The translations under genes and the position numbers were made by a program. DNA of 64,000 nucleotides, taken from a virus. Position 1 is the stretch's first letter. Each line of letters starts with the position of its first letter. The notes beneath the pieces were generated by a model. The model made no database searches and was not told where the DNA came from. It was given only the letters and a program-made list of their open reading frames with translations. Below are positions 19,761 through 60,605 of this stretch, one piece after another. The stretch lies in IMG/VR virus record IMGVR_UViG_3300023174_005548, positions 1 through 64,000 of that record; one strand, given 5' to 3'.

Positions 19761-19765
19761 ATAAT

Positions 19766-22784: not shown

Positions 22785-22793
22785 AAATAGCTG

Positions 22794-23072: not shown

Positions 23073-23078
23073 AAACAC

Positions 23079-23107: not shown

Positions 23108-23117
23108 ATAAAGCTGG

Positions 23118-27095: not shown

Positions 27096-27120
27096 TTAGT
27101 ATTAAAAAGTCTGTTATATT
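27092..27120 (+). promoter_or_regulatory. sigma70-type promoter (leaderless) for the polymerase genes
   Basis: TTGATT-N17-TATATT with TGn extension, 6 nt before ATG 27127. The -35 box contains the upstream TGA stop. Confidence 0.65.
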
Positions 27121-27126
27121 TAGGAA

Positions 27127-27873: not shown

Positions 27874-27874
27874 T

Positions 27875-28513: not shown

Positions 28514-28514
28514 T

Positions 28515-28745
28515 ATGGCATCATTAGACGACATTTATGATATGCTTCAAAAGCTAGATAATTCTGGCATAGAGTATTTACTTATTACTGTTCAAAAAGG
28601 TAAGAAGAATGGTAAAGCAGATGTATTCTTTTCATTAAAGAATGATGATTCAATGAGAATTCTTTCTACTGGACTTAGAGAATTTAATAAAGAAATAGAT
28701 AAAATAAATAAAGACGAAGATAAAGAGGAAGAAGATGAAGAATAA
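28515..28745 (+). CDS. Hypothetical protein with acidic tail
   Basis: MASLDDIYD... ORF between the exonuclease and dnaE; ATG follows directly after the upstream stop. Confidence 0.6.
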   Translation: MASLDDIYDMLQKLDNSGIEYLLITVQKGKKNGKADVFFSLKNDDSMRILSTGLREFNKEIDKINKDEDKEEEDEE

Positions 28746-31884: not shown

Positions 31885-31886
31885 TT

Positions 31887-41000: not shown

Positions 41001-44000
41001 AATTGCTGGAGTAAATCCAGTTATTAAACCTCCAGTAATATTTAATTGAATAATTCTATTATCATAATCAGATATGCCGATTGTTGAAGTGTTTTGGTTA
41101 TTTATATCAATACTAGATGACAAATCTCCATATAAAAATAAACCAGTAGTATTATTTGTTATAAATTTTGTGAATCCTTCAAAATTATTGTCAGTGCTTT
41201 GAGAAGTTGTTCTATTAGATATAGGCCTAATACTTTGAAAAACTGAAGGTCTTTTAGTATCTAAAAAGGTTAATCCATTAACATCATTTGATATTCCATC
41301 TGTATAGAATCTATTAATTGTATTATTGGTTGAGTCATATCCTCTTCCAGAATAAAATGTAGCATATGTTCCTACTACTAATATATGATCACCAGTATAA
41401 TGATTAATTTTATTAATACATGAAAAAGAACTTTCTGGATCAAAATCTCCTGTAATTGGTAGTAGTTGTTGAGTATTCAAATCAATTGCTGCAAATTTAT
41501 ATCGAGTTCCACTATTTAAAGATCCTGCACTAGTATAAACTCTATCAAAGTTTCCACCAAAATAACCTGTACTTCCAGTTATAAATATTGTCCTTAATGT
41601 AGTTGGATTATTAAATCCATCAAAATTATAATACTCATTTAAAAGATTTCCGCTAATATCAAATACTGCGCAACCACTTCGAGCAATCCAAGTTGATGTA
41701 TTATTTTGATTTCCTGTTTTGGGTATTACATATTGAAAATTACCAACAACATAATTTTTACCACCAGAGAAATCAATATCATAAGTTGTTGCAGTAGCAT
41801 TATTTCCATAAACTAAAGATGGAGATGCAAAGCTTCTGTCAATTGTAAATGGATTATTTAATTTAATTAAGGCATAAGAGTTGTAATTGTCATTGGCATT
41901 ATCATACTTAACTGAACCAAAACTACTAATATTTCCACCAACAAATAAAGAAGTACCACTCTCAAACATAAAATTAAGAGCTGAAGAGTTTACCTCTGGA
42001 CTATAAGGTAATAAATTTTCTTTTTCATCAAATGCAGCAATATTTACTCTTCTTTTTAATCCCACTTCTTGGAAATTTCCCACTAAATAATTTCTACCAG
42101 TAATAGATAAAGAATCGTAAACAGTTCCACTTAATAAATTAATTTGATTATAACCTGTTACTCCAATATAGTCTTTGAGATGTGCATCATATGGATCAGA
42201 TATAACTGTATCATTTGAGCCATTAAAAATAAACATATTATTATAATATCCATCAATTGTGTCAGCGGTTGAACTTCTTGGATTTGCCCAAAGAGATTGA
42301 GTTGTAAAATTAGATTTTGATAAATTATTAAAATTACCAAATGCATATATTTTTCCATCAATATTTAAAAATTTTGTTATAGAAATATCAGTACCTTGCA
42401 AACCAAAATTTAAATTTAAATTTGTATTGTCAATTTTTATTTTACCTAAAGTATTAAAATTTCCATTCAAATCTATTTCATTAAAATATCCACCAATATA
42501 AACACTATCTCCAGTTAAGAATACGTCATTTAAATAAGCATTTCTAGGAACACCATTGTATGAAACTTTTGGATCCCAACCAGTTAATATAAAATTGTTT
42601 CCTGTTAAAAGAAATCCATTCCATCTTCCAGTTACATCATTAATAGCGTCAAAACTACCAAGCACAAACGTTAAATTAATATCTGGATAAGTTTTAATTC
42701 TATTAATTTGACCAGTTTGAATATCAAAAATAATTGGATTATTTACAAAATTATTTGGATTGCCGCTATCAAATATAACTAATCCTCTTCTTTGTATTGT
42801 TGACTCTTTAAAACCAGTTATAAAACCAATATTTGAACCAGAAACATATATTAAATCTGCATTTGTTAAATTTTCAATGTATCCATAAAGATTATCTCTA
42901 TTATAAACTGCGCCGCTAAATCCTAATTGAATTGGCAAACCACTATTAACTATTTGAAAATCTCCAGTAACAGTTCTAGGTATTCTTGAATAAGAGCCCG
43001 GAGAGAAAGTGACGATACCAGTTCTTTGGCGATTAAATAAATCTCCACTTAAATATCCAGTAGACAAACCACTCATTCTATTGGCTAAATATAAATAATT
43101 TGATCCAGTTACAACTCCAGAAAATATAAATCCTGTACCAGAAACTGTTCCAGTTAACCATGTTGTATTATATCCGCTCATAGCACCAGTTCCGGGAGTA
43201 TTTGGATCTAAATTTGTAACATCTATACCGCCAGTAAAATATTGAACATAATAAGGTAAATTAAATGTTCCTATCGCTAAACCAGTAAAGAAACCTGATG
43301 AGTAATATTGTATATTATTATAATTAAAAATTCCAGTAGCTGCAACATTTGCGATTCCAGTAGCCGGAAATAAACCTGTATAAGTTATATTTTGGTAATT
43401 TTGACCACTTATCGCAGTTAATCCGCTAAAATTAAAGTCTTTAAATCCTAAATCTGTACTTAAAATAGTATCAGTTCCACTTAAATTATAACCATATCCA
43501 GTACCAATTATAGCATCTTTAAACTCTCCAGTTGTTCCACTATAATATTCAAATTTGATATTTAATGGAAGATTACCATAACCAGTCAAAAGCGTTGTAC
43601 CAGAATAAATTCCTTTAGAATAATTTAAATTTGCATATCCATTTTGCAAACTATTTCTAACTCCAGAAAGTAATACACCATCTGGATTAGTAGATAAAAT
43701 AATATTATCTTCTAAAAGGAATAAACCTGTTAGTACTAAATTATTTTGTATTATGCCAAAATTTGTATATAAATTTAATGTTAAGAAATATCCTCCAACA
43801 TCATTTACAGTATTAAGTTTTATATTTCCACTTTTTAAACCACTTATAGTTGTATCAATTGAATTTAAACTAAAATTACCAGTTGGACTTAAGCTCCCAG
43901 AAAATATTTTAAATCCTAAATTAGAACTGTTGTTTACTATTTGACCCGTGAATGTTTTACCTATTTGAAATGTAGATGGAAATAATAATGTAAAATTAAC

Positions 44001-44369
44001 TGAATCGGCGCTATTAATTTTTAAACTAGTATCTAAAATAGCATTTGATGCATTATAAAAAAAGTTTTGAACTTTAAAATTATTCTTTATTCCATTAAAA
44101 CAAACTGGAGTTTTATTTATATAATAAGAATAGTTAGTATTTTCAATATCTCCAGATATATTAAAGTTTGTATTTGTTTGATAAGAGTTTACGTATCTAT
44201 TTTCAAAATCATAAATTTTTCCACTTTGAAAACTAAATTGTATTACATTTCCTTCGCCAGAAAAACCAAAAGCGCCAGAGCCAATTACATTATTAATAGA
44301 ACAATTAAGATCAAAACTTAATCCAGTTTGCTCAAAAATTGATCTATAATTATAACCTGAAACTAACAT
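38031..44369 (-). CDS. Large tail fibre / receptor-binding protein with central beta-propeller (GGxF/VGNF) repeats and [ST]G-rich flanks
   Basis: 2112 aa with repeated YIGGxF/VVGNF blade motifs; located downstream of the tail tip genes. Confidence 0.7.
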   Translation of the reverse strand: MLVSGYNYRSIFEQTGLSFDLNCSINNVIGSGAFGFSGEGNVIQFSFQSGKIYDFENRYVNSYQTNTNFNISGDIENTNYSYYINKTPVCFNGIKNNFKVQNFFYNASNAILDTSLKINSADSVNFTLLFPSTFQIGKTFTGQIVNNSSNLGFKIFSGSLSPTGNFSLNSIDTTISGLKSGNIKLNTVNDVGGYFLTLNLYTNFGIIQNNLVLTGLFLLEDNIILSTNPDGVLLSGVRNSLQNGYANLNYSKGIYSGTTLLTGYGNLPLNIKFEYYSGTTGEFKDAIIGTGYGYNLSGTDTILSTDLGFKDFNFSGLTAISGQNYQNITYTGLFPATGIANVAATGIFNYNNIQYYSSGFFTGLAIGTFNLPYYVQYFTGGIDVTNLDPNTPGTGAMSGYNTTWLTGTVSGTGFIFSGVVTGSNYLYLANRMSGLSTGYLSGDLFNRQRTGIVTFSPGSYSRIPRTVTGDFQIVNSGLPIQLGFSGAVYNRDNLYGYIENLTNADLIYVSGSNIGFITGFKESTIQRRGLVIFDSGNPNNFVNNPIIFDIQTGQINRIKTYPDINLTFVLGSFDAINDVTGRWNGFLLTGNNFILTGWDPKVSYNGVPRNAYLNDVFLTGDSVYIGGYFNEIDLNGNFNTLGKIKIDNTNLNLNFGLQGTDISITKFLNIDGKIYAFGNFNNLSKSNFTTQSLWANPRSSTADTIDGYYNNMFIFNGSNDTVISDPYDAHLKDYIGVTGYNQINLLSGTVYDSLSITGRNYLVGNFQEVGLKRRVNIAAFDEKENLLPYSPEVNSSALNFMFESGTSLFVGGNISSFGSVKYDNANDNYNSYALIKLNNPFTIDRSFASPSLVYGNNATATTYDIDFSGGKNYVVGNFQYVIPKTGNQNNTSTWIARSGCAVFDISGNLLNEYYNFDGFNNPTTLRTIFITGSTGYFGGNFDRVYTSAGSLNSGTRYKFAAIDLNTQQLLPITGDFDPESSFSCINKINHYTGDHILVVGTYATFYSGRGYDSTNNTINRFYTDGISNDVNGLTFLDTKRPSVFQSIRPISNRTTSQSTDNNFEGFTKFITNNTTGLFLYGDLSSSIDINNQNTSTIGISDYDNRIIQLNITGGLITGFTPAINANVYSVFVTGNSVIIGGAFGNVNGTGSAKIANLTTGNGVLKLDSYTGLNLNQVVNNISFYNNDLITVGNFSTFSGNKNANKFLYHSISGNKIYHSLNFVNDNANITNLKQNDGNIYLLGSALQQAKITPFNSIRKFGIINLNNSTSGFNIPNTDFNKNLIEIDTTIECFATGSSGIYLGGNFNYVNDSVKTGLCLIDYSGNILNWSPNIQGGNAEAKTLVVSGNYIYIGGNYYTINNLSIASLCKVRIDTDGSSTSDVDTNFLSYLPRNTNVYTLYPDNQYLYVGGDFDSIANSFIKAFAKINSSNAAIFNSLINIQSVPAAVYKIVKTGDLLLIGGEFTYNPNSPSLITNFIAAKDDGTIANYPTGLFTDNDIYKYVNDINIGKNNRIYIAGDLGSNTNVYNVLGGVVSLDYDSGNNILSRNNWTPSVENKYPSNIYQSKLTNAIFILDNFSYAGHLRPGICEINSSGRLNLDFNPRISINLNQYIKQASIYNNTGIAVVGSFSNINTSSSSYKNFAVINTQDNSITNLGLNFSGDTQSVYNTGSNIYVGGKFAYLTGNNSHQYFSNFIGFSTGNPNQTTTSISFVGNINSQTGASYININSIANLNNKFLVGGNFARLNPYLNISGSGAFVSGIAYIPTILTGTGNLTLSNSSGIYNYYLNYSGVNYSSNYSFSYVTNQGTTVNSTLNRSINEVLTTSYFTTFTGVRNYFETGSGIVSGIQTLIRDTGLWIATGKFTGYMSGNTSSNDFVYENGIITTGALFGSGYSISNISGDPLLTNIPLTGTIQVSRTYAVSTYTGAVVSGTYFASQGVYNLTGINVTGSRIITGNYTGLSTGDVLQINYSGDVITPQIQFITSGNYQLVSGSFGLYDINNPLVYATGIFTYTTGNIITTGYLTGVPQYTKSFSGSFNILTGIFDTGIGDTIYTGLVYNENTLSYTGSGIFDTGSLFNFRFDYTNYTDYSPLIGKLTLSGINNTVYSTLITGV

Positions 44370-44370
44370 A

Positions 44371-46896
44371 TTATTTTGGCCTATATGTATTTAACTTGAT
44401 TGTTGGTTGAATTTTTTGAGAAATAGCTTCTCTTTTTGGAAGAATTTTTGGTCTGTTCGCAAAACTCAATTGAGTTGTTGCGCCATTTTCATTTAAATTT
44501 ATACTTAAACTAGTTAAACCTTTTTCTGGAGTAATATATTGCCCTAAAGTACTTAAATTTAATCCAATAATTGATAAACTTAAACTTTTTCGTGGTACAG
44601 TAATAGAATTAGTTATTTTTTTAGTTAAATCTGCGTGATATTCCGCAGGCGTTACCTTTTTAAATGTATTTGGTGTTACTCCGTCTGGCACAAACATATT
44701 AATAATAGTACTTCCATCAACGGGGCTTAAGTCATTTGATATGTCGGATTCTGCTACTTGTAATGATAAAGTATTTTCGTCAATTCCATCAATTGAACCA
44801 AGAACTATTTTTTGTCCGGGCACAGTAAATTTCAAGCTATTATCTATTGATTCAAATCCTGTATAATCTGCTTCACTTGGCATAAAAATATCTATACTTT
44901 TTCCATCCGTGCTTAATGTAAGTTTTCTACAGGTAGGTGGAGTAGTTAATCCTACATATGGTTCTTGTGCGTCCGCGCATTTACCACATACATCTTGAAC
45001 TAAATCAGTTTCACATTTAGTAGTGCATTCTGCACTTTTTTGTGGATCATCTTCGTTTTTTGCTAATTCAAGCTTATTTGTATCACTTCCTATGGTTGCA
45101 ATAAGTCCTTGATTCATAATAGATGATGGAGGTAAAAATACAAAAACCACTTTTTTCTCTCCAGATTCTCCAGCTGCTTTTAAGCTGTCGATTTTAGCTA
45201 TAATATTTGTTAATTGTTGAGCTAATTGAGTATCATTATTTTTTTGAGCTTCATTTCTTGCTCCAACGAGCCTAGTATAAGCTAAACCTTCTATTGGTAA
45301 AATTTGAGGAATATATTTTTCAAAAGGATCACTTCCATCTCCATTTAACATTTTGGCATTATAATCTTCTATTGATGTACCATAAGTGGCAGATCTTTCA
45401 AATATATAACTCGCAGGAATACTCCATTCTAATCCACCTACTCCTTCTGGTCCAATTATAGCATCAGCAAATGGTAAATCATATTTATTTGCATTTGTAT
45501 AAACTGTAGAAGCTGGAGTTACTGAAATATTTTTTTGATAAAAAAAAGTTTCTCCACATTCTTGTCTTGAACTAGCTGGTTCACTTTGACTTTCATAATA
45601 TTTTCCTATCATATTTGCTACAGAACTCTCCCAATTTGTGTATTTTTCTTTTTGAGATGGATCATAAACTGCAATAAAAATTTGTGCTCCATTGTATTTG
45701 TTAATCATATTTGTTATAGCTGGATTATTGTATCCATAAGTGAAAGCTTGTGTGAAAATATTATTATTTTTTTGCTGAGGGGATATTGTTATAACATTTA
45801 TTAAATTACTATAACCTATATATTTTCCTTTTGTTTGCATGTTTTTTGCACAATAAACTGTTCTAGCGTTATCGTTATATTTTCCTAAAACTGCTCTTGT
45901 AATTGATTCAATATTTACTTTAATTTTTTCTGGTTTAATACAAGTAAATGTTCTTGTATTTTTTGCAGAAGTATTTGAATTTTTAACTTTTGATGGTTTT
46001 AAATATCTTGATATATGTTTTTGAGTTACGGTTCCTTCAAGAGATTGACTTTCATTAAAAGATTCTATAGCTAATGTATTTGAGTTAGTTGTATTAATAT
46101 TTAAACTACTGTTTGCAGATATTATGCTTTTAATTTCAGAAATATAATCTACTTCTAATTTTAAATCTATTCCTCTTATTGTATTCGTTTGAAAATCCCA
46201 ATAAAAAGTATATCCAAAATCTGCACACCAATTAGACAAAACTTCTCTTAATGTTCCAACGTAAGTTTGATAATATAATGGATTAATATCAGCTAATCCA
46301 AGAACATTAATTCCAGCTTGTGATATGGCTTGCAATAATAAAGTAAAATTATAAGCAACATCTGGAATATCGCATGCGCCTTCCATGAATTGCTCTTGTC
46401 CTAAAATTATACTTCCACCACGATTTAAATCGACATTAACTTCTAATCCAGAATATATTGATCTATATATATTATTAGTTCTAGTTTCAGAACTTAACCC
46501 ATCACATTTTACACATGCAGCGCTAAGTTCAAATGGTATGTTTGGGCCATATCCAGCTGAACCATGTCTATTTATAAGACCAATAAAAATTTTATCTAAT
46601 ATAAAAGAATTATCAAAAAAATTCAAAGTAGCTACTTTTTGACCAACACTTCTGCTGATTTCATATGAATAAAGATACATTTTAGAAAGTATTAAATCTC
46701 CAATTTTAATATAATAAGAAGTTGTTAAAGAATTCGGAAAAGAGGAAAAATCACCATTTTCTTTTACTATATTTAATGTTAATTTTGTGGGACTTTCAGA
46801 AAAACCTAGCTCAAGATTTGAACCATATATATAGCTGTCGAATATTTCTCCAGAATTGCCATTAACAATAATCTCTTCGATTTTTTTGTAAGCCAT
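44371..46896 (-). CDS. Tail tip / baseplate hub-like protein
   Basis: 841 aa. GTLREVLSNWCADFGYTFYWD is hub-like, and it ends in TSLSINLNENGATTQLSF; lies downstream of the TMP. Confidence 0.55.
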   Translation of the reverse strand: MAYKKIEEIIVNGNSGEIFDSYIYGSNLELGFSESPTKLTLNIVKENGDFSSFPNSLTTSYYIKIGDLILSKMYLYSYEISRSVGQKVATLNFFDNSFILDKIFIGLINRHGSAGYGPNIPFELSAACVKCDGLSSETRTNNIYRSIYSGLEVNVDLNRGGSIILGQEQFMEGACDIPDVAYNFTLLLQAISQAGINVLGLADINPLYYQTYVGTLREVLSNWCADFGYTFYWDFQTNTIRGIDLKLEVDYISEIKSIISANSSLNINTTNSNTLAIESFNESQSLEGTVTQKHISRYLKPSKVKNSNTSAKNTRTFTCIKPEKIKVNIESITRAVLGKYNDNARTVYCAKNMQTKGKYIGYSNLINVITISPQQKNNNIFTQAFTYGYNNPAITNMINKYNGAQIFIAVYDPSQKEKYTNWESSVANMIGKYYESQSEPASSRQECGETFFYQKNISVTPASTVYTNANKYDLPFADAIIGPEGVGGLEWSIPASYIFERSATYGTSIEDYNAKMLNGDGSDPFEKYIPQILPIEGLAYTRLVGARNEAQKNNDTQLAQQLTNIIAKIDSLKAAGESGEKKVVFVFLPPSSIMNQGLIATIGSDTNKLELAKNEDDPQKSAECTTKCETDLVQDVCGKCADAQEPYVGLTTPPTCRKLTLSTDGKSIDIFMPSEADYTGFESIDNSLKFTVPGQKIVLGSIDGIDENTLSLQVAESDISNDLSPVDGSTIINMFVPDGVTPNTFKKVTPAEYHADLTKKITNSITVPRKSLSLSIIGLNLSTLGQYITPEKGLTSLSINLNENGATTQLSFANRPKILPKREAISQKIQPTIKLNTYRPK

Positions 46897-46924
46897 AAAA
46901 CCTTATTCCTTGTACCGATTAAAA

Positions 46925-46930
46925 TTACAC
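46925..46930 (-). promoter_or_regulatory. GTGTAA motif followed by an AAGG-repeat leader
   Basis: Reverse complement taaatatgtgtaa...tacaaggaataaggttttATG. Confidence 0.55.
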
Positions 46931-46940
46931 ATATTTACTA

Positions 46941-48692
46941 TTATAGTATATTAAATGAAGTGTCTTCATTATTATAATAATTATATGGTTTTTGAGCAGG
47001 ATAGAACAAAGAATTTAACAAGCTTTGGCAGTTAGTTTTGACGTAATTTTGATTTTCTTCTTGAAGAATACCATTTAAATATACTTGTTCTTCAGTTAAT
47101 GGCACAAGATCACCAGTTAAAACAACATAATTACCAGTAAATGTGCTATATATAATGCTTGTGCGAGATGTAGCTAGTACTCTGCCAGTAGAGTCGTTGA
47201 TATTCGCATTAAATGTAATTGTTGGGCCTGAAATTGTATAGTTATATCCAGATATTAATTTTTGGCCATTTAAATACATTGAATTATTTAAATTATTATT
47301 TAAAGTATAAGTATATGAGCTTCCAGTAAAGTTAATTACTTGAGGAGTAGTCTTGGTGTCAAAATAAACTATACTATCTGTAAATTGATCAAAAAATCCA
47401 TTACTATTTACATATCTATTGCCAGAAAGATTGTAATTTCCACTTACTATATTTCCGCTTATATTAAATCCAGATTGTTGGAAAACTCCATTAGAGAAAA
47501 GATTAATGCTTTGACCAGTTGACTCTAATCCTAAAAGGAATTGTTGAAGAGTATTATCATATTGAGTAACTTTTCTATAATTATCTAAAAAGCCTGTATA
47601 AGTATTTATTTCAATAAAGTCTCCAGAATCAATTGGATATAATAATTTTAATCTATTGTTTGAATAATTACTTAATCTATTAGCGTCGTAATTAATAGTT
47701 TCTGGTATGGTTATAGATATTCTTTTTGATCCAGTTGTTACTCCTGTGATGAATTGAATTTGCTCACCATAAAGTAATCCTGTAACACCAGATTGACTAA
47801 ATATTGATATTGAACCACTTCTAGTTGGAATTGTTCCAACACTTATTCTTTGAAATCCAGTTATTCCAGTACCAATGACAGCAGCATTAACATAACGACC
47901 ACTTGATATTTTATTATATCCAGTAACTATTGAAACTGTACTTGCTGGAGTTATACTTGAACAAAATATTCCACCCGCTAAATTATTTCTTTGACCATAT
48001 CCAATATAACCAGAAAAATATAAGAAATCATCTACAAAACCTTTGAATCCAGTATAATTAGTATTAGCTCCACTAAAAGTATTTCCAAGAAAATAAATAT
48101 TTGAATTAACATAATTGGGAAGCTCAAAAGCCTCTAATGTATTAGATGAATTAGCAAAATCATGACTAGATAATTCAAAAAAATTATTATTTTTACTTAA
48201 AGAAATTAAACTATTATTTTTATTCTCGTAGCTTGAAGTATAGGTATTTTTTCCAGAAATATCATTATATTCTAAGAAAAATTTATTAGCGCCGTTGAAT
48301 CCAAATGAGAAACCAGAGGTGCTAGCTGGAGTATTTTGATTGGTAATTAAAACTGTTGATTTATTTCTTTCTATATTGCAATCGAAGTTTTTATAACCTA
48401 AAAACATTGTCCAATTTTGTTCATTTAAATAATTACTCACTCTAAATATTGCTGTGCCAGAAAAGAATCCAGACCCAAGATAATCATTAAATTCACCAGA
48501 ATTTAAACTTACAATAAATCCGGGGTTATTGTCTATATAAACAAATCCGCCACTATATTGACTGTCGGCACTATACAAAGAATTAATTACTACAGAATCA
48601 CCAGATATCCTAGAGAAATCATAATATACCTTCCAACTACCTGTGGCAATTGAGTTTATATTTAGTATTCTGTTATAATCTGATATGTTCAT
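46941..48692 (-). CDS. Tail protein with N-terminal LamG-like domain
   Basis: VYYDF, FKGFVDDFLYF, and repeated LNGQKL/YLNGILQ elements; [ST]G-rich. Confidence 0.65.
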   Translation of the reverse strand: MNISDYNRILNINSIATGSWKVYYDFSRISGDSVVINSLYSADSQYSGGFVYIDNNPGFIVSLNSGEFNDYLGSGFFSGTAIFRVSNYLNEQNWTMFLGYKNFDCNIERNKSTVLITNQNTPASTSGFSFGFNGANKFFLEYNDISGKNTYTSSYENKNNSLISLSKNNNFFELSSHDFANSSNTLEAFELPNYVNSNIYFLGNTFSGANTNYTGFKGFVDDFLYFSGYIGYGQRNNLAGGIFCSSITPASTVSIVTGYNKISSGRYVNAAVIGTGITGFQRISVGTIPTRSGSISIFSQSGVTGLLYGEQIQFITGVTTGSKRISITIPETINYDANRLSNYSNNRLKLLYPIDSGDFIEINTYTGFLDNYRKVTQYDNTLQQFLLGLESTGQSINLFSNGVFQQSGFNISGNIVSGNYNLSGNRYVNSNGFFDQFTDSIVYFDTKTTPQVINFTGSSYTYTLNNNLNNSMYLNGQKLISGYNYTISGPTITFNANINDSTGRVLATSRTSIIYSTFTGNYVVLTGDLVPLTEEQVYLNGILQEENQNYVKTNCQSLLNSLFYPAQKPYNYYNNEDTSFNIL

Positions 48693-48695
48693 ATA

Positions 48696-50393
48696 TTATA
48701 ATAGTATTTTGGCCGGTAAAAATACAGGAGAAGTGTCTCTTGATGAATTTTGTATAGAATAAGCTAAGGCAGAAGTGCTACTTTTTGTATATCCTTCTTT
48801 AACTTGATCAAAATTATAAGATTCATTCATGAGTATATAGCTTTGATTTGCATAAACAGTCTTTAATATATTTAATGTTTCTCTAGTATCTGATTTTGCT
48901 CGATCAGTAACAGTATCACTTAAAAACTCAGACGTTGAATTAATATTAACTGTTGCTAATTTTTTTGCATCTCCAAGTTCATAAACAATATAAAAACCAT
49001 TAATATTATAAGTGGGTCTTGGTTTGAAAAGGTCTATTTTAGGTTCATAAGATATTTCGAAAGAATTTGATTTTGTTACTTTTTCAGTTAAAGAAGGAGT
49101 AATGTTATCTTTATCATCAAAAGTCGCAGAAACTGTTATTTCACCTTTTTCTGGATTTTTAGTTACATTAAAGCTTCTCCAATTAGGATTTAAATTAATA
49201 TTAGAACCAATACCCAAAGTATTTTTTAATGGAATATATGCAGAATTATTTGCTATATAATATAAATAACTTTGAACACTTCCAAAATTAAATACTATAT
49301 CATCAAGATAATTTAAAGCTGACTCATATCTTTCTTTTAAATTTCCTTTTGTTATAATTGGACCAGAGATTGTTACTGAAGTAATTGATGTTACTTCATC
49401 TTTATTAAAATCTGTTGTAAAGTCTAAATATGGCGCAGCGGATGTAGCGTAATCCCCTTGAATAACATCTGTATTATATGAAGCTGAAAAACTAACAGTC
49501 CTAGCTTCGCGATCCTCTTGAAATGACATTGTGATTGGTTTTGTATTTAATGGTCCACCAAAATTTCCCGTGCATATTCCATAAAGATCTAAAGCTTTTG
49601 CATAGTTAACTAAATTATTAAAGTTAGATCTCTTTGCGCCTTGAATTGAGCCTTGGACCGATATATCATCAAAATCTGTATTAATACTTTTATTTATTGT
49701 TGTTGTATATCTTGTAAAATAGCTTGGATTTACATATGGATCATTAGAGATATCTACTTTATAGCTTTCTTGAACACTATACGTTCCATTTAAACGATTT
49801 AAATTTTCACTAAAAGATAATAAAAGTGGGGTATAATTGGTATTACTAATATTAATAGGCAGAACAGTCGGATCATAACCAGTAAGTGAATATACGTAGT
49901 TTCTTGCATTATTTATTGCTGAATTAGTACTTGTATTTATGCCTTTAGCTGAAACAGTATGACTTATTGCTACTGATTTATCCTCGCCTTCAGTAAAGGT
50001 ATATTCATTAGTTGGATCCATTATCCCATAAACGCCAGAAAATAGTCCACTTTCATAACAATCTAATTCAATTGAATAATTTAATAATTTAACATATTTA
50101 GATTGATCAAAGTTAATACCTCTTACTATACAAGCATCGGCGTTAAATAAATTTTTACCATCTTCAATTATATTTAATTTTTTAAAATCTCTAGAAAATC
50201 CACTTATAAGTTTATTTTGACCCGTAATTAATTGACCAAAATCATTTGGACAAGTTCCTGTTATTTGACCTTGTAAAACAATTTTTGTAATTTGACCAAA
50301 ACGATCAGCATAATTTATAATTTCTTGATTCCTAGATACAAAAGGAATAGGGTCATTAAAAGTAAAATTATCATACGTTATTTGAATACTCAT
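48696..50393 (-). CDS. Tail tip structural protein, paralog B
   Basis: Internal repeats; co-linear similarity with 50390-52081. Confidence 0.6.
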   Translation of the reverse strand: MSIQITYDNFTFNDPIPFVSRNQEIINYADRFGQITKIVLQGQITGTCPNDFGQLITGQNKLISGFSRDFKKLNIIEDGKNLFNADACIVRGINFDQSKYVKLLNYSIELDCYESGLFSGVYGIMDPTNEYTFTEGEDKSVAISHTVSAKGINTSTNSAINNARNYVYSLTGYDPTVLPINISNTNYTPLLLSFSENLNRLNGTYSVQESYKVDISNDPYVNPSYFTRYTTTINKSINTDFDDISVQGSIQGAKRSNFNNLVNYAKALDLYGICTGNFGGPLNTKPITMSFQEDREARTVSFSASYNTDVIQGDYATSAAPYLDFTTDFNKDEVTSITSVTISGPIITKGNLKERYESALNYLDDIVFNFGSVQSYLYYIANNSAYIPLKNTLGIGSNINLNPNWRSFNVTKNPEKGEITVSATFDDKDNITPSLTEKVTKSNSFEISYEPKIDLFKPRPTYNINGFYIVYELGDAKKLATVNINSTSEFLSDTVTDRAKSDTRETLNILKTVYANQSYILMNESYNFDQVKEGYTKSSTSALAYSIQNSSRDTSPVFLPAKILL

Positions 50394-52081
50394 ATCATTT
50401 TAATCCCACTATTAAATGCATCAACATATGAAGTATAATTAATTCCAACATTAAAATTCAAATTAAAATCAGAATTAAAAGAATAATCACTTTTTGTTAC
50501 AAAGGCTTCTTGAGCTGGAACATTAGGAAAATCTTTTGCTAGTTCTTGGACTGCTACTATTTTTAAAGAACTCAATATAGCGTCTGATACAGGATTTGTT
50601 GAATATATTGAAGCATTTGGTCTTTCTACAACGCACTCTAAATTCACTGTTCTTTCGCCGAGTTCAGTTTGACCTCCTGCATTTAAAAATACAGCTTTGT
50701 TAGGTATAACGTATTGATTATAAATATGCTTTGGCGATGCATCAGATTTTTTAACAATTAATTTTTTAATACCACTTATGTTTGTGTTGTAAATTCTATC
50801 ATCAGAATATTTTAATGAATAATTTAAAGCGTTACCATAACGAGGAAAGGTCATCGTTTTTTCTAAAGAATTTAATTTTTTATTATAACCTTGAAAACTA
50901 TAAAATTGATCTATTTTGCCGCTTGCACTTGCAAATACTCCATTCATATAATTTTGTAATAAATAATTAGTTACAAAGTTGTTTGATTTATTTCCATATA
51001 TTCTTATACTGCCATTTTCTTGGACTTCTACAACTTCAAGATTATTTTGACTTAGCGTTAATGTTGCTTGGCGAGTATATCCACTTACTGTAAAAATTGG
51101 ATTATTTGTGTATTTGATTGAATATCCTGCATCACCATTAAATGTATTAAAATTTCTATTTACTTCAATTCCAGTATTAACTAAACTATAGTAATTACCC
51201 AAATTGTTTGAACTTCCATATGAAGTTAATAGTGCGTTACATCTATTATAACTTTTAGCTAATTCAGTTTCTACAGCGCCAGATGCAGTTGCAAATCTTG
51301 GTTCTTTTAATCCTCTAATATTACCTTGCTCGCTTACATCTATATTTCCATCTGCTCCTAAACTTAAGCTTTGAGATAAGGTTAATGTATAATCTCCAGA
51401 ATAATTATTATAAAGAGTGAAATTTTTGGTGAATGAACAATCATTAGTTATAAGATTGTAATTTTCTGTGAAATATTTTTTACCAGTTTTAATATAAAAA
51501 CCAGAATATTTAGAATCAATAAATCCTATAGGTGGAGTTGTATTAAATATTCCAGAAGCAAGATTTTTCGCTAATTGAATTGGACTTGTATAGTTATCTG
51601 CTTTTCTATATCTAATGTTTAAATTATGGCTATAATTATAACCATCATCTTCGTTAATATTAAAAGCAAAAGTTTCATCAAAAGCTTCTAGTAAGCTAGT
51701 TGTACCACTTAATACACCACTAATTCCAGTATATAAAGTTCCACTTAAATTATAAAGATCATTAGCGCCACTAGTTAAAACATTAAAACTAATTGTATGA
51801 GTATCGAGTCTAATTGGATTATTTGTATCGAAACTTATTGAAGTAATTGTAGCTGGACCAAGATTTACTCCATTAACAATAATATTTTCTCTTTCATTTA
51901 AACTTCTAATCATTCCGCTTTGAAGTGCAAGATTACCAGAAACGCCTTGAGTATTAGTAGATTGTAAAAAGAAACCTTCTACAGTATAATTTTTAGTTGA
52001 ATTGAGTCGAAAATTATCACCAAGGAAATTGTTTTGATGGCTATATGTTAAAAGTCTTGCTCCGGTAATTGTATAGCTCAT
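50390..52081 (-). CDS. Tail tip structural protein, paralog A (distal-tail position)
   Basis: Lies directly after the TMP; co-linear similarity with 48696-50393. Confidence 0.6.
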   Translation of the reverse strand: MSYTITGARLLTYSHQNNFLGDNFRLNSTKNYTVEGFFLQSTNTQGVSGNLALQSGMIRSLNERENIIVNGVNLGPATITSISFDTNNPIRLDTHTISFNVLTSGANDLYNLSGTLYTGISGVLSGTTSLLEAFDETFAFNINEDDGYNYSHNLNIRYRKADNYTSPIQLAKNLASGIFNTTPPIGFIDSKYSGFYIKTGKKYFTENYNLITNDCSFTKNFTLYNNYSGDYTLTLSQSLSLGADGNIDVSEQGNIRGLKEPRFATASGAVETELAKSYNRCNALLTSYGSSNNLGNYYSLVNTGIEVNRNFNTFNGDAGYSIKYTNNPIFTVSGYTRQATLTLSQNNLEVVEVQENGSIRIYGNKSNNFVTNYLLQNYMNGVFASASGKIDQFYSFQGYNKKLNSLEKTMTFPRYGNALNYSLKYSDDRIYNTNISGIKKLIVKKSDASPKHIYNQYVIPNKAVFLNAGGQTELGERTVNLECVVERPNASIYSTNPVSDAILSSLKIVAVQELAKDFPNVPAQEAFVTKSDYSFNSDFNLNFNVGINYTSYVDAFNSGIKMI

Positions 52082-55000: not shown

Positions 55001-58000
55001 CTATATTGGTTAGGTAAATCTAAAAGTGCTTCTTGTAATTTTTGTTGAGCTTTAATTATATCTTGTGCGCTTGATGCGCTATTACTAGTTATTTCAGTTA
55101 ATTTTTCAAATGCTTGAGCGTAAGCTTGACTAGCATCACTTAATTTATTTAAACCTTCGGCTGCTAATTCACCATTTTTTATTATATCACTAAGTGCTGC
55201 AGCTTTAAAAGAATCTTTAATTGAATCTATTGCTTGAACTACGCCAACTATAGCTCCAACAACTAATCCTACGTGGCCCGGAATTACGGTTGCAATTGAT
55301 GAAAATGTTGAGGCACCTTGTGAAATTCCTGATATTATATTTCCAAATGCACTTTTACCATCTCTATTAAATGTTTCAACTACTCCTTGTAATGTTGAGA
55401 ATGCAAAAGATGCAGCTAACATTTTAGCTTGCAATCCTCTCATTGCTTTACTAGAACTAGCTGCGGATGCTGCAGCTGCAGCTCCGCCACTTGGGGCAAA
55501 ATTAGGTATAAATCCTCGCGCTAAAGTCTCTTGTGCCATTTTAGAATTTTTAATAGCATTATTTATTCCTTCTGGATGATCTCTTTTAACTGCAGAGAAA
55601 TTAGATTGAGTATTTTTATCTCTAACATATAATCCAATACCTTCTTGAAAATCAAGCGCAGGATTTCCACCCATCTTTTTTTCTGTTTCCATTGCATCTT
55701 TAATAGAAGCGAAATTAGGAATAAAACCTTTCGCTAAGTATTCTACTGGTATATTTTTAATTCCAGCTAATTGAGCTAATTCAAATCTATGATTTCCATC
55801 TTTTACTTCAGAATATAATTCTGGATATTGTTTAATTAAAATTGGTTGCTTTTTTAAAAATTGATAAAGTTTTTTCTTATTTTGTTTAGAAGAAAATAAT
55901 TGAGTTAAATTTTGTTTAGTTATAGGACCAGAATAATTGATTCCCATTAAAGATATTAAGTTTGATAAACCTTGAGCAGTTGATTTATTTGATCTTCCAA
56001 CAAAACCTCCTCGCTGAATATGTTTATTTGCATTAAATACTGCAAAATTAGGAATAAAACCCTTAGCTTTTTTAGCTGCTATTAATTTATCAAGAGGACT
56101 TGTGCCAGATGGATTTCGTGCTGTTATTGTTCTTTGATCTCCAACCAAAAGATTTTGTCTATATTCTTGTAATGTTTTCTTTGCTGAACTTAATGATTTT
56201 CCTTTAATTGCCTCTTTTTCTCCTTGTCGAATAATATCTAAATTTGGAAGTAATGTATCTAAATCTTTTTTAATTTTATCACTCATGCTACCGCGATTTG
56301 TTTTACTTCCACTTACTTTAAAATCTGCTACATTATAATTTCCGGGAAAATATTTTCTAACTTTTGCAATATTAGATGAATTTCTAACATCAAAATCTCC
56401 ACCATCTGAAGCAGCTGCTTTAACTCCTAAAGCTTCTCCTGTACCAACTTCAAATGCTGCTCCAATAAAAGCTTGTAAGGCTCCATATGCACCTTTATAT
56501 TTAGAATTTTTTGAAAATAAACCTACTAATGAATCTGTAGTAATTTTTTGTGCTGGGGGTTTATATCCAATAGAATTTATATAATTTGTTGCACCATCTA
56601 ATACCATTCTTGAAATTTTATCAATTGCCTCTTTACTGTTAAATTGTTGATATATAGATTTTTCAGACTCTACGCCAGCTTTACTCAAAGGAATAATTGG
56701 ATATTGTAAAGTAGCATCTTTATATTTTAAAGTACCAACGCTCTGGTCGCCTTCAGCAATTAACATCGCAGGATTTATTTTTCTATAAGCTGCATAAATA
56801 TTTTTTTGCATTTTTTCTTGGTTACTTTTTGCAAAATTTGGTACAAATCCCAAAAACTTTAATTTATCATAATATTCTTTTTGTCTTTTATCGCCAATTG
56901 AACCATACGTTGGAATAACTGCAGAATCACCATTACGTCCAGCACCCACAACTTCTATTTCTTTATTATTTTTTATGAACTTTTTACCACCAATAGTTCC
57001 TTGAGAAATTTGTGCACGTGGATTAACTGCGCCCATACTTCTTGCATTTTGCTCTTCTTCTCCAAAAAGATTAGGTATAAATCCACCAGATCTAACTTGG
57101 AGTGTTCCTTTACCTGCTCCAGTTTTTCCTATAGAAACTCCAGCTGCTGATAATGAAGCTGCAAGAGATTTTGCAAGAGTAACTTGCTGTTGCATGGCAA
57201 GAGTTTGAGCTTTAATTGTATTTAAAATAGATAATTGAACTGCTTCGACTGTAGTTTGTCCACTAGCAATTTGAGTAATAATTTGTGGATTTTTACTCAA
57301 TAAAGTAGTAATTTGCTCTTGAATTTGTGCTTGTTCTGCTGCTTGCGTATTTAATCCTAAAAGAGTTTTAACTGCATCCGCTGAGAATGTTGTTAATCTT
57401 TCAAAAATAGTGAATAAAGCTCTAGCGCCAACTATTAATCCCGGTCCACTTAAAAAGTTTCCTAATCCTCTAAGTAAACCTTCTCCAATTTTATTTCCAA
57501 CATCTTCACTATCTCCACCAGTAAAACTTTCTAAAGCAGTATTTAATCCACCCATAACTTTTTTCAAAGCAGGAGCAAGACTTAATTCTCCAATTTTTGC
57601 ACCAGCTGCAGTTAGATTAGCTAATGTTTTATTTAAAGTGGCTGCAAGAGTTGTATTTAATTGTTCATTTCGTTTTATAGCTTCATTACTTGCTCCACTA
57701 GAAATAGATAATGCTTGAGAATAAATAGAATATTCTTTACTTAAATCTCCTAAAGCAGCTTTTAAAATATTAATTTGGAAAACGCCACCAACTTGTTCCG
57801 CGATAGAAGATTTTTGTCTGTCGTTTAGAGTATCATATTTATTTGCTAATTCAGTTAAAATATCAATAACTGGTCTAGTATTTCCAGCTAATGTTTGAGT
57901 TTCAATTCCTAATTGTTGCAAAGCATCTAAAACTTTTGGCCTTTCTAATCTTGTAAAAATTGTTTTGAAGCTGTTACCGATAACTGCACCACCTCGCGCA

Positions 58001-58725
58001 GTAATTTGTTGAGCAGAAGTAACAATCGCAAGCAATTGATCGAAACTAACTCCAGCATCTTCTGCGCTACTTCCTACTCGTTTAATGGCTTCAGCAAGAT
58101 CTCCAGAACTAACAGCAAAATTAGCATCAACTGCTGCTAGTTTGTTAATAATATCTGTTGATGATAATGCTGCTTTTTGGAAACCGTTAAGACTCGCTGT
58201 AATTGCATTTACCGATTCTGCTGCCCCTAAACCAGAAAGACGAGTTAATATAAGTGCATCTTGTGTTCTTTTTAAAGTTTCAGTAACTCCAAGACCTTGT
58301 CGAGATAATTCCGTTGCAGCTGCAGCTACAGTTGAAAATGTATTTCCTGTATTTTTAGCAATATTAAAAAGATTTGTTCCAAATTCATTTAAACTTTTGC
58401 TACTTAAATTTAATATAACATTAATATCTACAAGAGCTTTTTCTACTTCAATTGCGGCTTTAACGCTTTCAGAAAGAGCTTTTTCAACTGCGTAAATTGC
58501 ACTAGCAGAGGCACCGAACGCAATAACACGAGCATTAGATGCTTCTAATGATTTTTCAAACTCACCTAATTGACCTTTAATTTTACCTAAAGGAGCAGAA
58601 ATACCTCCTCCTTTTGTAGTTAAATTAAGAGTATATGGCTGACTAACTAGGGCGTTAATCTGCTTTTGAGCAGCCCTAATATTCGCTACTACATCAATAT
58701 CTAGTTGATTTCTACCTTGTGCCAT
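52096..58725 (-). CDS. Tape measure protein (TP901-like core) with internal cargo domains
   Basis: 2209 aa. N-terminal TMP core (ELSRQG, DKLAAVD-like NKLAAVDANFAVSS.DLAEA, G..IGNSFKTIFTRL), TM-like segment, coiled coils; downstream of tail tube and chaperone genes. Confidence 0.92.
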   Translation of the reverse strand: MAQGRNQLDIDVVANIRAAQKQINALVSQPYTLNLTTKGGGISAPLGKIKGQLGEFEKSLEASNARVIAFGASASAIYAVEKALSESVKAAIEVEKALVDINVILNLSSKSLNEFGTNLFNIAKNTGNTFSTVAAAATELSRQGLGVTETLKRTQDALILTRLSGLGAAESVNAITASLNGFQKAALSSTDIINKLAAVDANFAVSSGDLAEAIKRVGSSAEDAGVSFDQLLAIVTSAQQITARGGAVIGNSFKTIFTRLERPKVLDALQQLGIETQTLAGNTRPVIDILTELANKYDTLNDRQKSSIAEQVGGVFQINILKAALGDLSKEYSIYSQALSISSGASNEAIKRNEQLNTTLAATLNKTLANLTAAGAKIGELSLAPALKKVMGGLNTALESFTGGDSEDVGNKIGEGLLRGLGNFLSGPGLIVGARALFTIFERLTTFSADAVKTLLGLNTQAAEQAQIQEQITTLLSKNPQIITQIASGQTTVEAVQLSILNTIKAQTLAMQQQVTLAKSLAASLSAAGVSIGKTGAGKGTLQVRSGGFIPNLFGEEEQNARSMGAVNPRAQISQGTIGGKKFIKNNKEIEVVGAGRNGDSAVIPTYGSIGDKRQKEYYDKLKFLGFVPNFAKSNQEKMQKNIYAAYRKINPAMLIAEGDQSVGTLKYKDATLQYPIIPLSKAGVESEKSIYQQFNSKEAIDKISRMVLDGATNYINSIGYKPPAQKITTDSLVGLFSKNSKYKGAYGALQAFIGAAFEVGTGEALGVKAAASDGGDFDVRNSSNIAKVRKYFPGNYNVADFKVSGSKTNRGSMSDKIKKDLDTLLPNLDIIRQGEKEAIKGKSLSSAKKTLQEYRQNLLVGDQRTITARNPSGTSPLDKLIAAKKAKGFIPNFAVFNANKHIQRGGFVGRSNKSTAQGLSNLISLMGINYSGPITKQNLTQLFSSKQNKKKLYQFLKKQPILIKQYPELYSEVKDGNHRFELAQLAGIKNIPVEYLAKGFIPNFASIKDAMETEKKMGGNPALDFQEGIGLYVRDKNTQSNFSAVKRDHPEGINNAIKNSKMAQETLARGFIPNFAPSGGAAAAASAASSSKAMRGLQAKMLAASFAFSTLQGVVETFNRDGKSAFGNIISGISQGASTFSSIATVIPGHVGLVVGAIVGVVQAIDSIKDSFKAAALSDIIKNGELAAEGLNKLSDASQAYAQAFEKLTEITSNSASSAQDIIKAQQKLQEALLDLPNQYREQYASAKNLTEMQDIMGQALAAKRKEAMQKQSAADLAKDVEKQGKTRNFIGDFVRDMNDKLGLTGKSTKGAKATAAGGALSTFAPLVALAELSVNFGKDKVQGKKDKGIFTGSQFGEQLATERASDIFKGLDPQFAKDLASGVIKADQSGEQWLATLKRYGASADQLVSAQAILNNESADGVADFKMLTDALVNVAKTTTKANDNLNKLSAEQKKRLADEEQKIINTRKQIEAEKAAAEAIEIRTAATLKASMEEKKLATYRQSSMNRIATEAEKSRLQTKQPFITEESMARGNAQVTANQANNDYGIKVQESNNKAIEEMTNQLTTSIDNQIEELKKSEGRGGEAVTKEIEKLKGARGQISNIIKSGGTADQVSNKFQELAGEGNLELPDLQKLAVQNGVIIQEARAEAAKAEVDRQEQIQIAKDQLKAQLQQLRDQKLLKGGGGIEGFLNPETLKDPLEKFTQGLQGMQAGRKTGLGMMEARGSLQAGMSLQELTGGLGSDKLNKSLRDKVVPAMAAQKKQMFNDIASQAEGAGNKDLAQIARDAAAEAESMAQKQFDNQFKLEDYVAEINTNVAALAKGGVESQTTGGIQQGIDQASTTMNKQTVATSIATNPTSTVTNATPAEGNRQYYPDGTPIPTKEERYKMVHAPTMTKEQQIEMNKRKEKESADLEQQFRTGIFPKDTIANEYKEPKPKPLSNSELVKKFAEGATDEVTPFLYRDQFFKTEKDLERYRSSAQGGFDPVADAYAEKQAKKKNNVANIGAGPSSATPITAGTYAASGNSNTGNNLTTPQVNNSIKQNNAAQEEILKKRDALAGKNDPESNRQRTQLDKNLNTLRDQQKAAGTAGKEAGMRERPAQEIERQQKGRPLSSNQNDQGQGDKSQKLADAIDKNTKATTESKSEVNVAFTPISVEVKGSIETASDQLSQKTMDAIQKAVEQLAPGIMAKLKGPPTRESGASNTVTG
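55495..57084 (-). repeat. Five GF[IV]PN[FL] peptide repeats in the TMP (57067-57084, 56830-56850, 56041-56061, 55708-55728, 55495-55515)
   Basis: SGGFIPNLF, LGFVPNFAK, KGFIPNFAV, KGFIPNFAS, RGFIPNFAP. Synonymous codons differ between copies. Confidence 0.9.
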
Positions 58726-58762: not shown

Positions 58763-59764
58763 TTATAATCCATGTAATTTTAACATATCCTGCATACTAA
58801 GTTCACCACCCTTTTTCTGAGCTTCTTTACCTAAATCTACTATCTCATCATCTTTAGAGAATTGATTGATATTCTTAATTTCATCCTTAGAAGCTCCAAT
58901 ATATGTCGCTCCATCTTTCTCTTTAGATTTATGCTTAACATCTGAGGCGCTATTTATATTTCTATTTAATTCATACCAATCAAGCAATTGATCAAGATCA
59001 TCATAATACTCTTCACTTGGACTAGCGCCCTTTGATAATACGTTCTTATAGACCCTTGCGTTTGAGAATATTTCAAGCTGAAAAGTAGATAATTGAATGA
59101 TAGGTTTACCATAAAAAATGAATATATCGTCTTCTGTTAAGAACATATTATTTAAGAAAAATGGAAGAGTAGCTATTTTCTTTAAGTTTTTTTGGTTGAA
59201 ATTCTCAATTATTTTATTATACATTGAGATGTATACTGTGAGATCTTTTGTATCAAGTTCTTCAAAATCATTTTCACTAAATAAATTTATTTTTAAATCT
59301 TGGTCTTTAAATATTGATCTATAAATTATCATTTCATTTGATCTTTTATTGGCGTATTTTTCTGCAGTTATCCCTAATAAACCTTCTCGTTCTAGATTTA
59401 TTTCATTTAATTCTTTTTCTAATTGTTTGATTTGGGTATTTAAACTAGTGGTTTGACTTTTAATGAATACTTTTTTAAGAGTATCTTTAAGATGTGCAAT
59501 TTGTTTTTTATTAAATGCTATTTTCTTTTCTTTTTCTTCAGACCATAAATCTGCATTACATAGCTCTTCTATCTTGCCTTTTTCATCTGGAAGACCACGA
59601 ACTTTGGCCTCATTAAAATGTTGAATGTAAAGATCTTCGATTAAGCCTAAATCAATCTCATATGGATGCTTGATGTATATATTTTGAGAAGCTATATAAG
59701 AATATCCTAAAATGATATCTTTATATAATTTTCTTAAAAATCTATACTCATTATCAACTGTCAC
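58763..59764 (-). CDS. Probable tail assembly chaperone
   Basis: Helical, charged 333-aa protein directly upstream of the TMP; call is positional. Confidence 0.5.
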   Translation of the reverse strand: MTVDNEYRFLRKLYKDIILGYSYIASQNIYIKHPYEIDLGLIEDLYIQHFNEAKVRGLPDEKGKIEELCNADLWSEEKEKKIAFNKKQIAHLKDTLKKVFIKSQTTSLNTQIKQLEKELNEINLEREGLLGITAEKYANKRSNEMIIYRSIFKDQDLKINLFSENDFEELDTKDLTVYISMYNKIIENFNQKNLKKIATLPFFLNNMFLTEDDIFIFYGKPIIQLSTFQLEIFSNARVYKNVLSKGASPSEEYYDDLDQLLDWYELNRNINSASDVKHKSKEKDGATYIGASKDEIKNINQFSKDDEIVDLGKEAQKKGGELSMQDMLKLHGL

Positions 59765-60605
59765 TTACTTTAGCTTCTTCTTTTGCTTCTTCTTTTGGCT
59801 TTTCTTCTTGATTTTCTGATTTAGCTTCTGCTTTGGCTTCGTCTACAGTTATTTCAGCTTGAACAGGAATATAATATTTTTCTGCTCTAACGAAATCTTC
59901 TTGAGAGGAGATTTTACCCATGTACCAGAAACTAATAAAATAAGCTAATTTCTTAAATGACTCATTCCAAAATAAATTCTCTGATTCTTCTAGACTATCA
60001 TAATATTCTAGTTTTTCATCAAAAGTTTTTCCTTGGAATACTGGAACAAAATCATTCGCTTTTTCATCAAGCATATAAGATAAGTTTAAAACCCACCACA
60101 TAATACATTGATTTCTAGCTCTATTTTCTGCTGTTTGATCAAATAATGAAATTTGAGAAAACTCTAGATTTTGTAATTCCTGACGAATTTCAGTTAGTTC
60201 TGCTAATACAGAAGCGACTTTTGCAGTCTTGTCTTCTGGTGAAATATTCTCCAAATTAAGAGATACTTTTTGAAATTCTGTTTCTTTAGAGTAAAGATCA
60301 ACATAAAGTTGAGTATACTTTTGTTTTTCTGGTTCGCTCATTGAGCCACCATCATTTTGATATCTTTTAGCAAGAAGAGCTTTTGTTAATAGGCCAGCTT
60401 TAATTCCTTCTGAAAGCTTGATGCCATAAAACAATTCAGCATCATCAAATTGTCTGCGAGTTGGTTTTTGTATTTTAAACTTAGTTGGAACAACTTTTTT
60501 GACTTTCTTAGTTGTTTTAACTTCGTTGCCTTGAGCATCGTTGGTTACTTCAACTTGCTCGATTTCTTTTTCATTATTTACTGCGAATTCATATAGCCAT
60601 TTCAT
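59754..60605 (-). CDS. Probable tail assembly chaperone
   Basis: Helical 283-aa protein between the tail tube gene and the TMP; call is positional. Confidence 0.5.
   Translation of the reverse strand: MKWLYEFAVNNEKEIEQVEVTNDAQGNEVKTTKKVKKVVPTKFKIQKPTRRQFDDAELFYGIKLSEGIKAGLLTKALLAKRYQNDGGSMSEPEKQKYTQLYVDLYSKETEFQKVSLNLENISPEDKTAKVASVLAELTEIRQELQNLEFSQISLFDQTAENRARNQCIMWWVLNLSYMLDEKANDFVPVFQGKTFDEKLEYYDSLEESENLFWNESFKKLAYFISFWYMGKISSQEDFVRAEKYYIPVQAEITVDEAKAEAKSENQEEKPKEEAKEEAKVSDS

Follow-up and report, generated by a model that had tools for sequence, protein, structure and literature searches.

A repeated peptide within a tape measure protein

The stretch of DNA analysed here comprises 64,000 nucleotides (nt), positions 1 to 64,000 of IMG/VR record IMGVR_UViG_3300023174_005548 (hereafter, the window), and bears on its minus strand the gene P0001, encoding a tape measure protein (TMP) in which a short peptide, GF[IV]PN[FL], recurs five times and divides the region between the N-terminal core and a hydrophobic, transmembrane (TM)-like stretch into four cassettes (Table 1). 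An earlier note, made from the letters of this DNA, had placed five copies of the peptide, which we call the junction, between the TMP core and the TM segment; translation bore out their residue positions, and on retranslation the spacing between consecutive copies was again 78, 263, 111, and 71 amino acids (aa). Against these five copies, 1.3e-4 would be expected from the composition of the protein, and no further copy was present in the six reading frames of the window or of the 100.6-kb record.

Table 1. Features of the tape measure protein gene and of the module array it encodes (coordinates refer to the window).
Feature	Residues (aa)	Coordinates	Strand	Basis or remark
Tape measure protein gene P0001		52096..58725	-	2,209 aa; Pfam PhageMin_Tail E=1.8e-31; nine PHROG TMP families, best E=1.1e-52
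PhageMin_Tail (PF10145) core	123-314	57784..58359	-	Pfam match
Junction motif 1, GFIPNL	548-553	57067..57084	-	Translation
Cassette 1, family F2, small module	554-625	56851..57066	-	Conserved GTIGGKKFIKNN...NGDSAVIPTYG
Junction motif 2, GFVPNF	626-631	56833..56850	-	Translation
Cassette 2, family F1, family-wide core module	632-888	56062..56832	-	Conserved residues; mostly helical predicted fold
Junction motif 3, GFIPNF	889-894	56044..56061	-	Translation
Cassette 3, family F6, mobile 105-aa module	895-999	55729..56043	-	Partial ParB/sulfiredoxin-like signature
Junction motif 4, GFIPNF	1000-1005	55711..55728	-	Translation
Cassette 4, family F0, small module	1006-1070	55516..55710	-	Model predicted local distance difference test (pLDDT) 70-86
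Junction motif 5, GFIPNF	1071-1076	55498..55515	-	Translation
Hydrophobic, TM-like stretch, after the module array	1138-1170	55216..55314	-	Kyte-Doolittle window maximum 2.05

The gene encodes a TP901-1-type TMP of an uncultured, low-GC, large phage. The PF10145 score was 110 bits against a gathering cut-off of 33.2, which places the protein within the TP901-1-type family, and this domain was the sole Pfam match on the whole 2,209-aa chain. The layout is that of a TMP, combining great length, a hydrophobic stretch, a coiled-coil ruler, and co-oriented large open reading frames (ORFs) of 563–2,112 aa on the minus strand; a profile search of the PDB with the C-terminal half returned coiled-coil proteins only. 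The phage record has a length of 100,571 bases, with a G+C content of 24–36%, and since it is estimated to be ~66% complete, the whole genome would span ~150 kb.

Synonymous codons differed among the five junction copies of P0001, and codon choice in 32 copies from 8 loci followed gene-wide usage; selection therefore acts on the junction peptide rather than on the DNA, in agreement with the earlier note. Regarding structure, the junctions had a pLDDT <50 in both AlphaFold2 models, compared to 70–93 for the module cores, and in neither model did the motif pack against the modules. The junction peptide is thus predicted to be disordered on its own, and the modules are modelled as independently folding units set between the TMP core and the membrane-inserting hydrophobic stretch. 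A Lys–Asn isopeptide cross-link from the motif Asn to the K803/E759 pair of cassette 2 was also considered and discarded, as no model places the motif on a module. Mimicry of the FtsZ C-terminal peptide (IPxF) was likewise entertained as a conceivable role.

When residues 530–1090 were used as a query, 249 proteins were matched, all of TMP length and nearly all carrying PF10145. The motif counts cover 121 retrieved sequences of these 249, and all 121 contained G-[FYW]-x-P-N in 2–9 copies per protein, most often four, placed at around residues 545, 625, 890, and 960. Over 498 copies, the logo reads [AS]-x-G-[FY]-[IV]-P-N-F-[AS], with G, P, and N invariant and conservation confined to positions -2 to +6. 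The GYIPNF variant accounted for 21% of the copies, and the residue before the junction G was R, K, L, S, or G. Judged from these matches, the junction peptide marks a large TMP family known only from metagenomes, with related contigs deriving from freshwater and other aquatic samples; neither tblastn of the cassette region nor megablast of 10 kb gave a match to deposited phage records. A search for the DNA pattern of the motif in 185,579 species genomes returned at least 120 loci; among those listed, 118 carried one motif each, which is most probably fortuitous, and only L050 (six motifs, in a metagenome-assembled genome of Proteobacteria) and L115 (two motifs) resembled pieces of a TMP, so the search provided no clue to the host. 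The literature searched contained neither the junction motif as a phage feature nor a junction-fenced TMP architecture.

Exchange and character of the modules

The inter-motif segments of the family formed several clusters, namely a big module of ~230–300 aa (families F1, F4, and F7, related according to hhalign at 98% for F1–F7 and 93% for F1–F4), small modules of 60–77 aa (F0, F2, F3, F8), the 105-aa module F6, and many singletons. The arrangement is that of a polyprotein, with one junction more than there are modules (n+1 for n). The close relatives P0004, P0005, and P0007 showed an absence of exactly 111 aa, corresponding to cassette 3 plus one junction, with otherwise nearly identical flanks. 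In P0039, the identity was 53% over the N-terminal 547 aa versus 95% in cassette 3, which there occupies another slot, ahead of the big module, while P0008 was 88% identical in cassette 2 as opposed to 14% in cassette 1 and 23% in cassette 4. At the DNA level, where breakpoints were examined on few loci (L001–L012), cassette 3 was 91–98% identical to its counterparts in L008, L010, and L011, whereas the 150 nt outside its junctions were 63–66% identical or unalignable. Additionally, F1, F4, and F7 replace one another in an allele-like manner among close relatives. Whole modules have been inserted, deleted, moved, and replaced exactly at the junction, by recombination between phages.

The claim of the earlier note that cassettes are swappable between phages is upheld by the 111-aa indel, the change of slot in P0039, and the DNA identity of cassette 3. 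The check it had proposed, a comparison of metagenomic TMPs bearing the motif, gave the same picture, with both copy number (2–9) and content varying. A view of cassette 2 as optional cargo did not hold, since nearly every family member, relatives lacking the canonical motif included, has a homologue of it at the corresponding place. A further arrangement was observed in L011 (Ga0214917_10002158, positions 2362–2982), where six junctions are present and the big module is separated from the ParB-like cassette by an additional cassette of 201 aa.

In cassette 2, the stretches GAAFE (aa 755–759), GDFDV (776–780), and ADFK (800–803) provide the residue order that had suggested a PD-(D/E)XK nuclease to the earlier note, and this order was conserved family-wide as E...D.D...(D/E)xK...S...K. 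Across the F1, F4, and F7 sequences (n=43), E759 was conserved in 43, D777 in 34, D779 in 38, D/E801 in 38, K803 in 39, S813 in 39, and K817 in 38. The PD-(D/E)xK fold is built on an alpha-beta-beta-beta-alpha-beta core with a four-stranded mixed sheet. The AlphaFold2 model of cassette 2, based on 43 sequences and with a core pLDDT of 85–93, is mostly helical, with E759 in a long helix and the D and DxK motifs on two short strands with a helix between them; because these are its only strands, the model does not contain the four-stranded nuclease sheet. Foldseek with this model returned nothing at E<=0.001, VIA-align against 48,161 chains gave a best Z of 4.5 with unrelated helical proteins, phmmer and profile searches of the PDB identified no nuclease, and the Protein Atlas offered no lead. 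The residue order of the nuclease assignment was therefore confirmed, but the fold was not.

An exhaustive phmmer search of cassette 2 against 1.84 billion representatives yielded 61 matches, nearly all at ~aa 520–950 of TMP-length proteins; none belonged to a free-standing family, and three matches of 118–193 aa are probably fragments. Being almost confined to TMP-length proteins, the domain is therefore a TMP-specific core domain. According to the model and the conserved residues, cassette 2 would be a core domain shared throughout the family, with a fold that matches no solved structure and a set of polar residues that looks catalytic and may support catalysis.

This constancy of the big module bears on a reading in which the junction is a mere structural joint (a hinge, a turn, or a trimer-register clasp in the tube) with no dedicated partner, and in which the modules are integral parts of the TMP, serving envelope penetration or the choice of an inner-membrane receptor rather than acting as released effectors, and diversifying to track host factors or to escape superinfection exclusion. 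The big module behaves as a core part, as it occurs in almost all members and in relatives that lack the canonical motif; moreover, the array directly precedes the hydrophobic stretch, no cassette matches an enzyme family, and the allele-like replacement of F1, F4, and F7 fits diversifying selection on a host-contact part. However, a passive hinge needs no invariant G, P, and N together with fixed aromatics over 498 copies, and in both models the motif stands clear of the modules. We regard a purely structural joint as unlikely.

Cassette 3 contains PILI (961–964), DGNHR (976–980), FELAQLAG, and IKNIPV, in this order, and the succession strand-DGxHR-helix-strand is present, which is the signature that had been read as ParB/sulfiredoxin-type. 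All ParB/sulfiredoxin signals of the cassette come from the 45 residues at its end, in the vicinity of DGNHR. For Pfam ParB_N (PF02195), the score was 15.9 bits (E=0.014), below the cut-off of 26.3, and the match spanned profile positions 41–75 of 95; in a six-frame search of the record cassette 3 was the sole ParB_N-like stretch (15.3 bits). Two PHROG ParB-like families matched weakly (E=0.024 and E=0.058), SbnI and ParB chains aligned to the motif, also weakly (E=0.3–0.9), and the Protein Atlas returned sulfiredoxin and ParBc_2 clusters at 0.89–0.90. The model of the cassette is helical, with a pLDDT of 48–68 over the signature and a shallow underlying alignment (5–11 sequences, 88–95% identical); with this low-confidence model, Foldseek and VIA-align gave no ParB match and none above Z 4.5. 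No free-standing homologue of cassette 3 (57–184 aa) was found. The signature itself is present, and cassette 3 may belong to this superfamily, all matches being partial and below threshold; on its sequence, it appears to be an accessory module that has been spreading recently and bears part of a ParB/sulfiredoxin signature.

Taken together, the two cassettes had invited the proposal that a PD-(D/E)xK nuclease (cassette 2) and a ParB-type nucleoside triphosphatase or nuclease (cassette 3) are released and injected as anti-host or anti-defence effectors. The order E759...D777/D779...D801-x-K803, kept in 34–43 of the 43 sequences, is consistent with this proposal, as are the weak ParB_N, PHROG ParB, SbnI/ParB, and sulfiredoxin signals given by DGNHR with its flanking strand-helix pattern and the recurrence of ParB-like DNases in virion-delivered polyvalent proteins (PMC5512222). 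In contrast, the confidently modelled core of cassette 2 is mostly helical, with two short strands instead of a four-stranded sheet, and Foldseek, VIA-align, and PDB profile searches found no nuclease; ParB_N reached only 15–16 bits against 26.3 over positions 41–75 of 95, and the helical model of cassette 3, unreliable in the signature stretch, had no ParB structure match. We consider effectors of this kind very unlikely.

As for the remaining segments, neither of the small cassettes 1 and 4 has known relatives; cassette 1 had no Pfam or PHROG match, and in the model of cassette 4 a helix and a beta hairpin are followed by a pair of helices. In the sampled relatives with 7–8 junctions, no Pfam match to the cassettes was obtained.

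Possible cleavage or docking at the junction

The only TMPs known to be cut are those of phages T5 and lambda, with an unmapped site in lambda and an unknown catalyst in both (PMC12617516, 2025). T5 pb2 is cut after R1127 (PMC10038345), in a context that reads NSFVPR/AEGG in the gene (the slash marking the cut), and FVPR is the sole occurrence of Ar-[IVLM]-P-[RKN] (Ar, aromatic residue) in its 1,219 aa. Lambda gpH loses a ~14-kDa fragment (gpHC) in a Gly-rich region, at an unmapped site (PMC12617516). In the gpH sequence (L135; J02459, gene H), the Gly-rich C-terminal region contains FATGG (aa 733) and YATGG (aa 778), and a cut at FATGG would leave 12.5 kDa versus the ~14 kDa reported. Of 51 distant matches, 18 keep the big module without the canonical junction; at the aligned sites, distant relatives show IPRF[NS][KR]G or [KR][FY]A[AS]GG, and hybrids such as FIVPNFAGGG link the forms. 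From these alignments, the junction seems to belong, in a sharpened form, to a broader class of TMP motifs found where the only known cuts in TMPs occur. In a sister clade of ~1,500-aa TMPs (P0123, P0134, P0139, P0157, and others), the big module and its conserved residues are retained, and the aligned positions carry IPRF[NS][KR]G and [KR][FY]A[AS]GG in place of the canonical junction; this clade is useful for tracing the origin of the junction.

Our preferred, tentative reading is that a putative protease of the phage or the host recognises the junction and cuts the TMP there, a serious possibility that nevertheless stops short of being probable. The putative cutting would occur during tail maturation or after ejection, as for T5 pb2 and lambda gpH. 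The modules, along with the N- and C-terminal halves, would become separate polypeptides leaving the tail tube before the DNA. While the genome enters the cell, the modules would most likely work in the cytoplasm or at the envelope of the host.

Several points weigh against such processing. Cleavage at the junctions is purely what we infer; no protease was identified by Pfam or PHROG among the tail-module ORFs, nor any peptidase match in the TMP; and the likeness to T5 amounts to three residues recognised post hoc. Seven consecutive near-invariant residues fit a docking site equally well, and in some relatives the junctions also bracket ruler segments of ~1,000 aa rather than globular cargo. 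Likewise, none of the four cassettes had a family-threshold match in Pfam or PHROGs, and the only clear enzyme in the sampled relatives, the glucosaminidase of P0098 (aa 2414–2545), lies outside the junction fences.

The same peptide could instead be an uncut docking site through which a putative partner handles the TMP module by module. Candidate partners would be a tail assembly chaperone, the tail-tube lumen, or a SurA- or FkpA-like host periplasmic chaperone/prolyl isomerase, and in the latter version the modules would be refolded after exiting the narrow tube unfolded. The seven near-invariant consecutive residues, with aromatic and aliphatic residues around an invariant proline, argue for docking, as does the predicted disorder of the junctions on their own. 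WEYIPNV is a phage-display peptide that binds the P1 domain of SurA with a dissociation constant of 1–14 uM (PDB 2PV1; PMC11401910, PMC7195389). This synthetic peptide, selected for E. coli SurA, resembles the junction by sequence alone, sharing Ar-[IV]-P-N-hydrophobic, and its YIPN is identical in the GYIPNF variant. Furthermore, the injection of the HK97 genome requires the periplasmic chaperone FkpA and PtsG, as cited in PMC5099701, and the family 9 (GT9, heptosyltransferase-type) glycosyltransferase carried by our phage is a hint that the host is Gram-negative.

The SurA lead is weak, however, because the first aromatic of the SurA consensus, Ar-X-Ar-X-Pro (PMC11401910, PMC7195389), is missing from the junction. 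The chance of such a match is also not small, as the likeness emerged against a background of many known peptides. A complex prediction of E. coli SurA P1 (aa 165–285) with TMP residues 984–1034, run without controls, scored 0.02, which carries no weight in either direction. The partner protein itself is putative only. Docking in place of cleavage is, in our opinion, possible but rather doubtful.

Returning to cleavage at the junction, its furthest-reaching form would make the junction a polyprotein processing signal, a multiplied and sharpened form of the motif at which T5 pb2 and probably lambda gpH are cut, and the TMP a programmable carrier with which ready-made, interchangeable proteins are loaded into the tail lumen and released in the host ahead of the DNA, which on our analysis is improbable. 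If the processing reading were true, the family would expose a still unknown TMP-cleaving activity. If the modules were released, the tail lumen would constitute a delivery route for exchangeable proteins into the host, with a bearing on phage counter-defence and on the engineering of phages as protein carriers; if they were not, the family would provide a new example of cassette-wise diversification in an envelope-crossing part of the virion.

Genomic surroundings and comparison with known systems

Downstream of the TMP gene, five large ORFs of 563, 565, 583, 841, and 2,112 aa are located at 38031–52081 (minus strand). None of the five had a significant Pfam match, and the three that were scanned against PHROGs had none either; by these profiles, the tail-tip/baseplate module of the phage is entirely unannotatable. 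On the other side, two minus-strand ORFs at 58763–60605 (59754–60605 and 58763–59764; 283 and 333 aa, overlapping by 11 nt), upstream of the TMP gene, occupy the position of a tail assembly chaperone pair. A G/GT-type frameshift between them was considered and found to have no case, as the second frame opens only at a GTG; because this GTG directly follows a TAA, the classical arrangement is not evident.

On the plus strand, a sugar-nucleotide/glycan block at 15910–20911 and 31878–34945 encodes a DegT/DnrJ aminotransferase, two GDP-mannose 4,6-dehydratase/epimerase-type enzymes, and a family 1 glycosyltransferase (GT1), as well as the GT9 enzyme mentioned above, and its gene content suggests the remodelling of surface glycans or lipopolysaccharide. 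Replication genes at 21220–31332 (plus strand) encode a RecA-like recombinase, a DnaB helicase, and a bacterial-type DNA polymerase III alpha subunit (865 aa). A 497-aa protein encoded at 1917–3410 (plus strand) contains two Laminin_G_3/concanavalin-A-like lectin stretches and matches, more weakly, the fold family of the clostridial neurotoxin receptor-binding N-domain, and this protein is probably an adhesin that binds carbohydrates or a component of a fibre.

When compared to known systems, the junction-fenced TMP is a variant of TMPs with embedded modules or of virion polyproteins, and it is real and widespread. SPbeta-like phages are the nearest cultured relatives, with only the PF10145 core in common (29–30% identity over aa 14–329). 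The YomI-type TMPs of SPbeta, with a lytic transglycosylase, and the P0098-like relatives, with a glucosaminidase, resemble our protein in combining the PF10145 core with extra domains in the ruler. In contrast, the SPbeta-type TMP lacks the junction motif and the glucosaminidase of P0098 is unfenced; the extra domains of these proteins are muralytic enzymes that stay fixed instead of being shuffled as cassettes.

Polyvalent proteins (Iyer et al. 2017, PMC5512222) are likewise giant, virion-associated chains composed of strings of unrelated modules, for which processing and delivery with the DNA have been proposed, and ParB/sulfiredoxin-like domains recur in them. They differ in bearing recognisable enzyme domains and a zincin-like self-processing peptidase, whereas in our TMP no cassette reached a family threshold and no peptidase match was obtained, which sets it apart from that class; conversely, polyvalent proteins have no counterpart of the repeated junction peptide. 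Tape measure proteins are mentioned 0 times in that study (PMC5512222).

The TMPs of T5 (pb2, giving pb2* and pb2C) and lambda (gpH, giving gpH* and gpHC) share with ours a hydrophobic stretch and a functional part that is separate from the ruler, and the T5 cut site has F-[IV]-P in common with the junction, although sequence homology among these proteins is limited to such short motifs. While T5 and lambda are cut once, near the C terminus, the TMP described here is predicted to carry five near-identical candidate sites in the middle of the protein, and its family offers a nearly invariant candidate site for TMP processing, present in 2–9 copies per protein.

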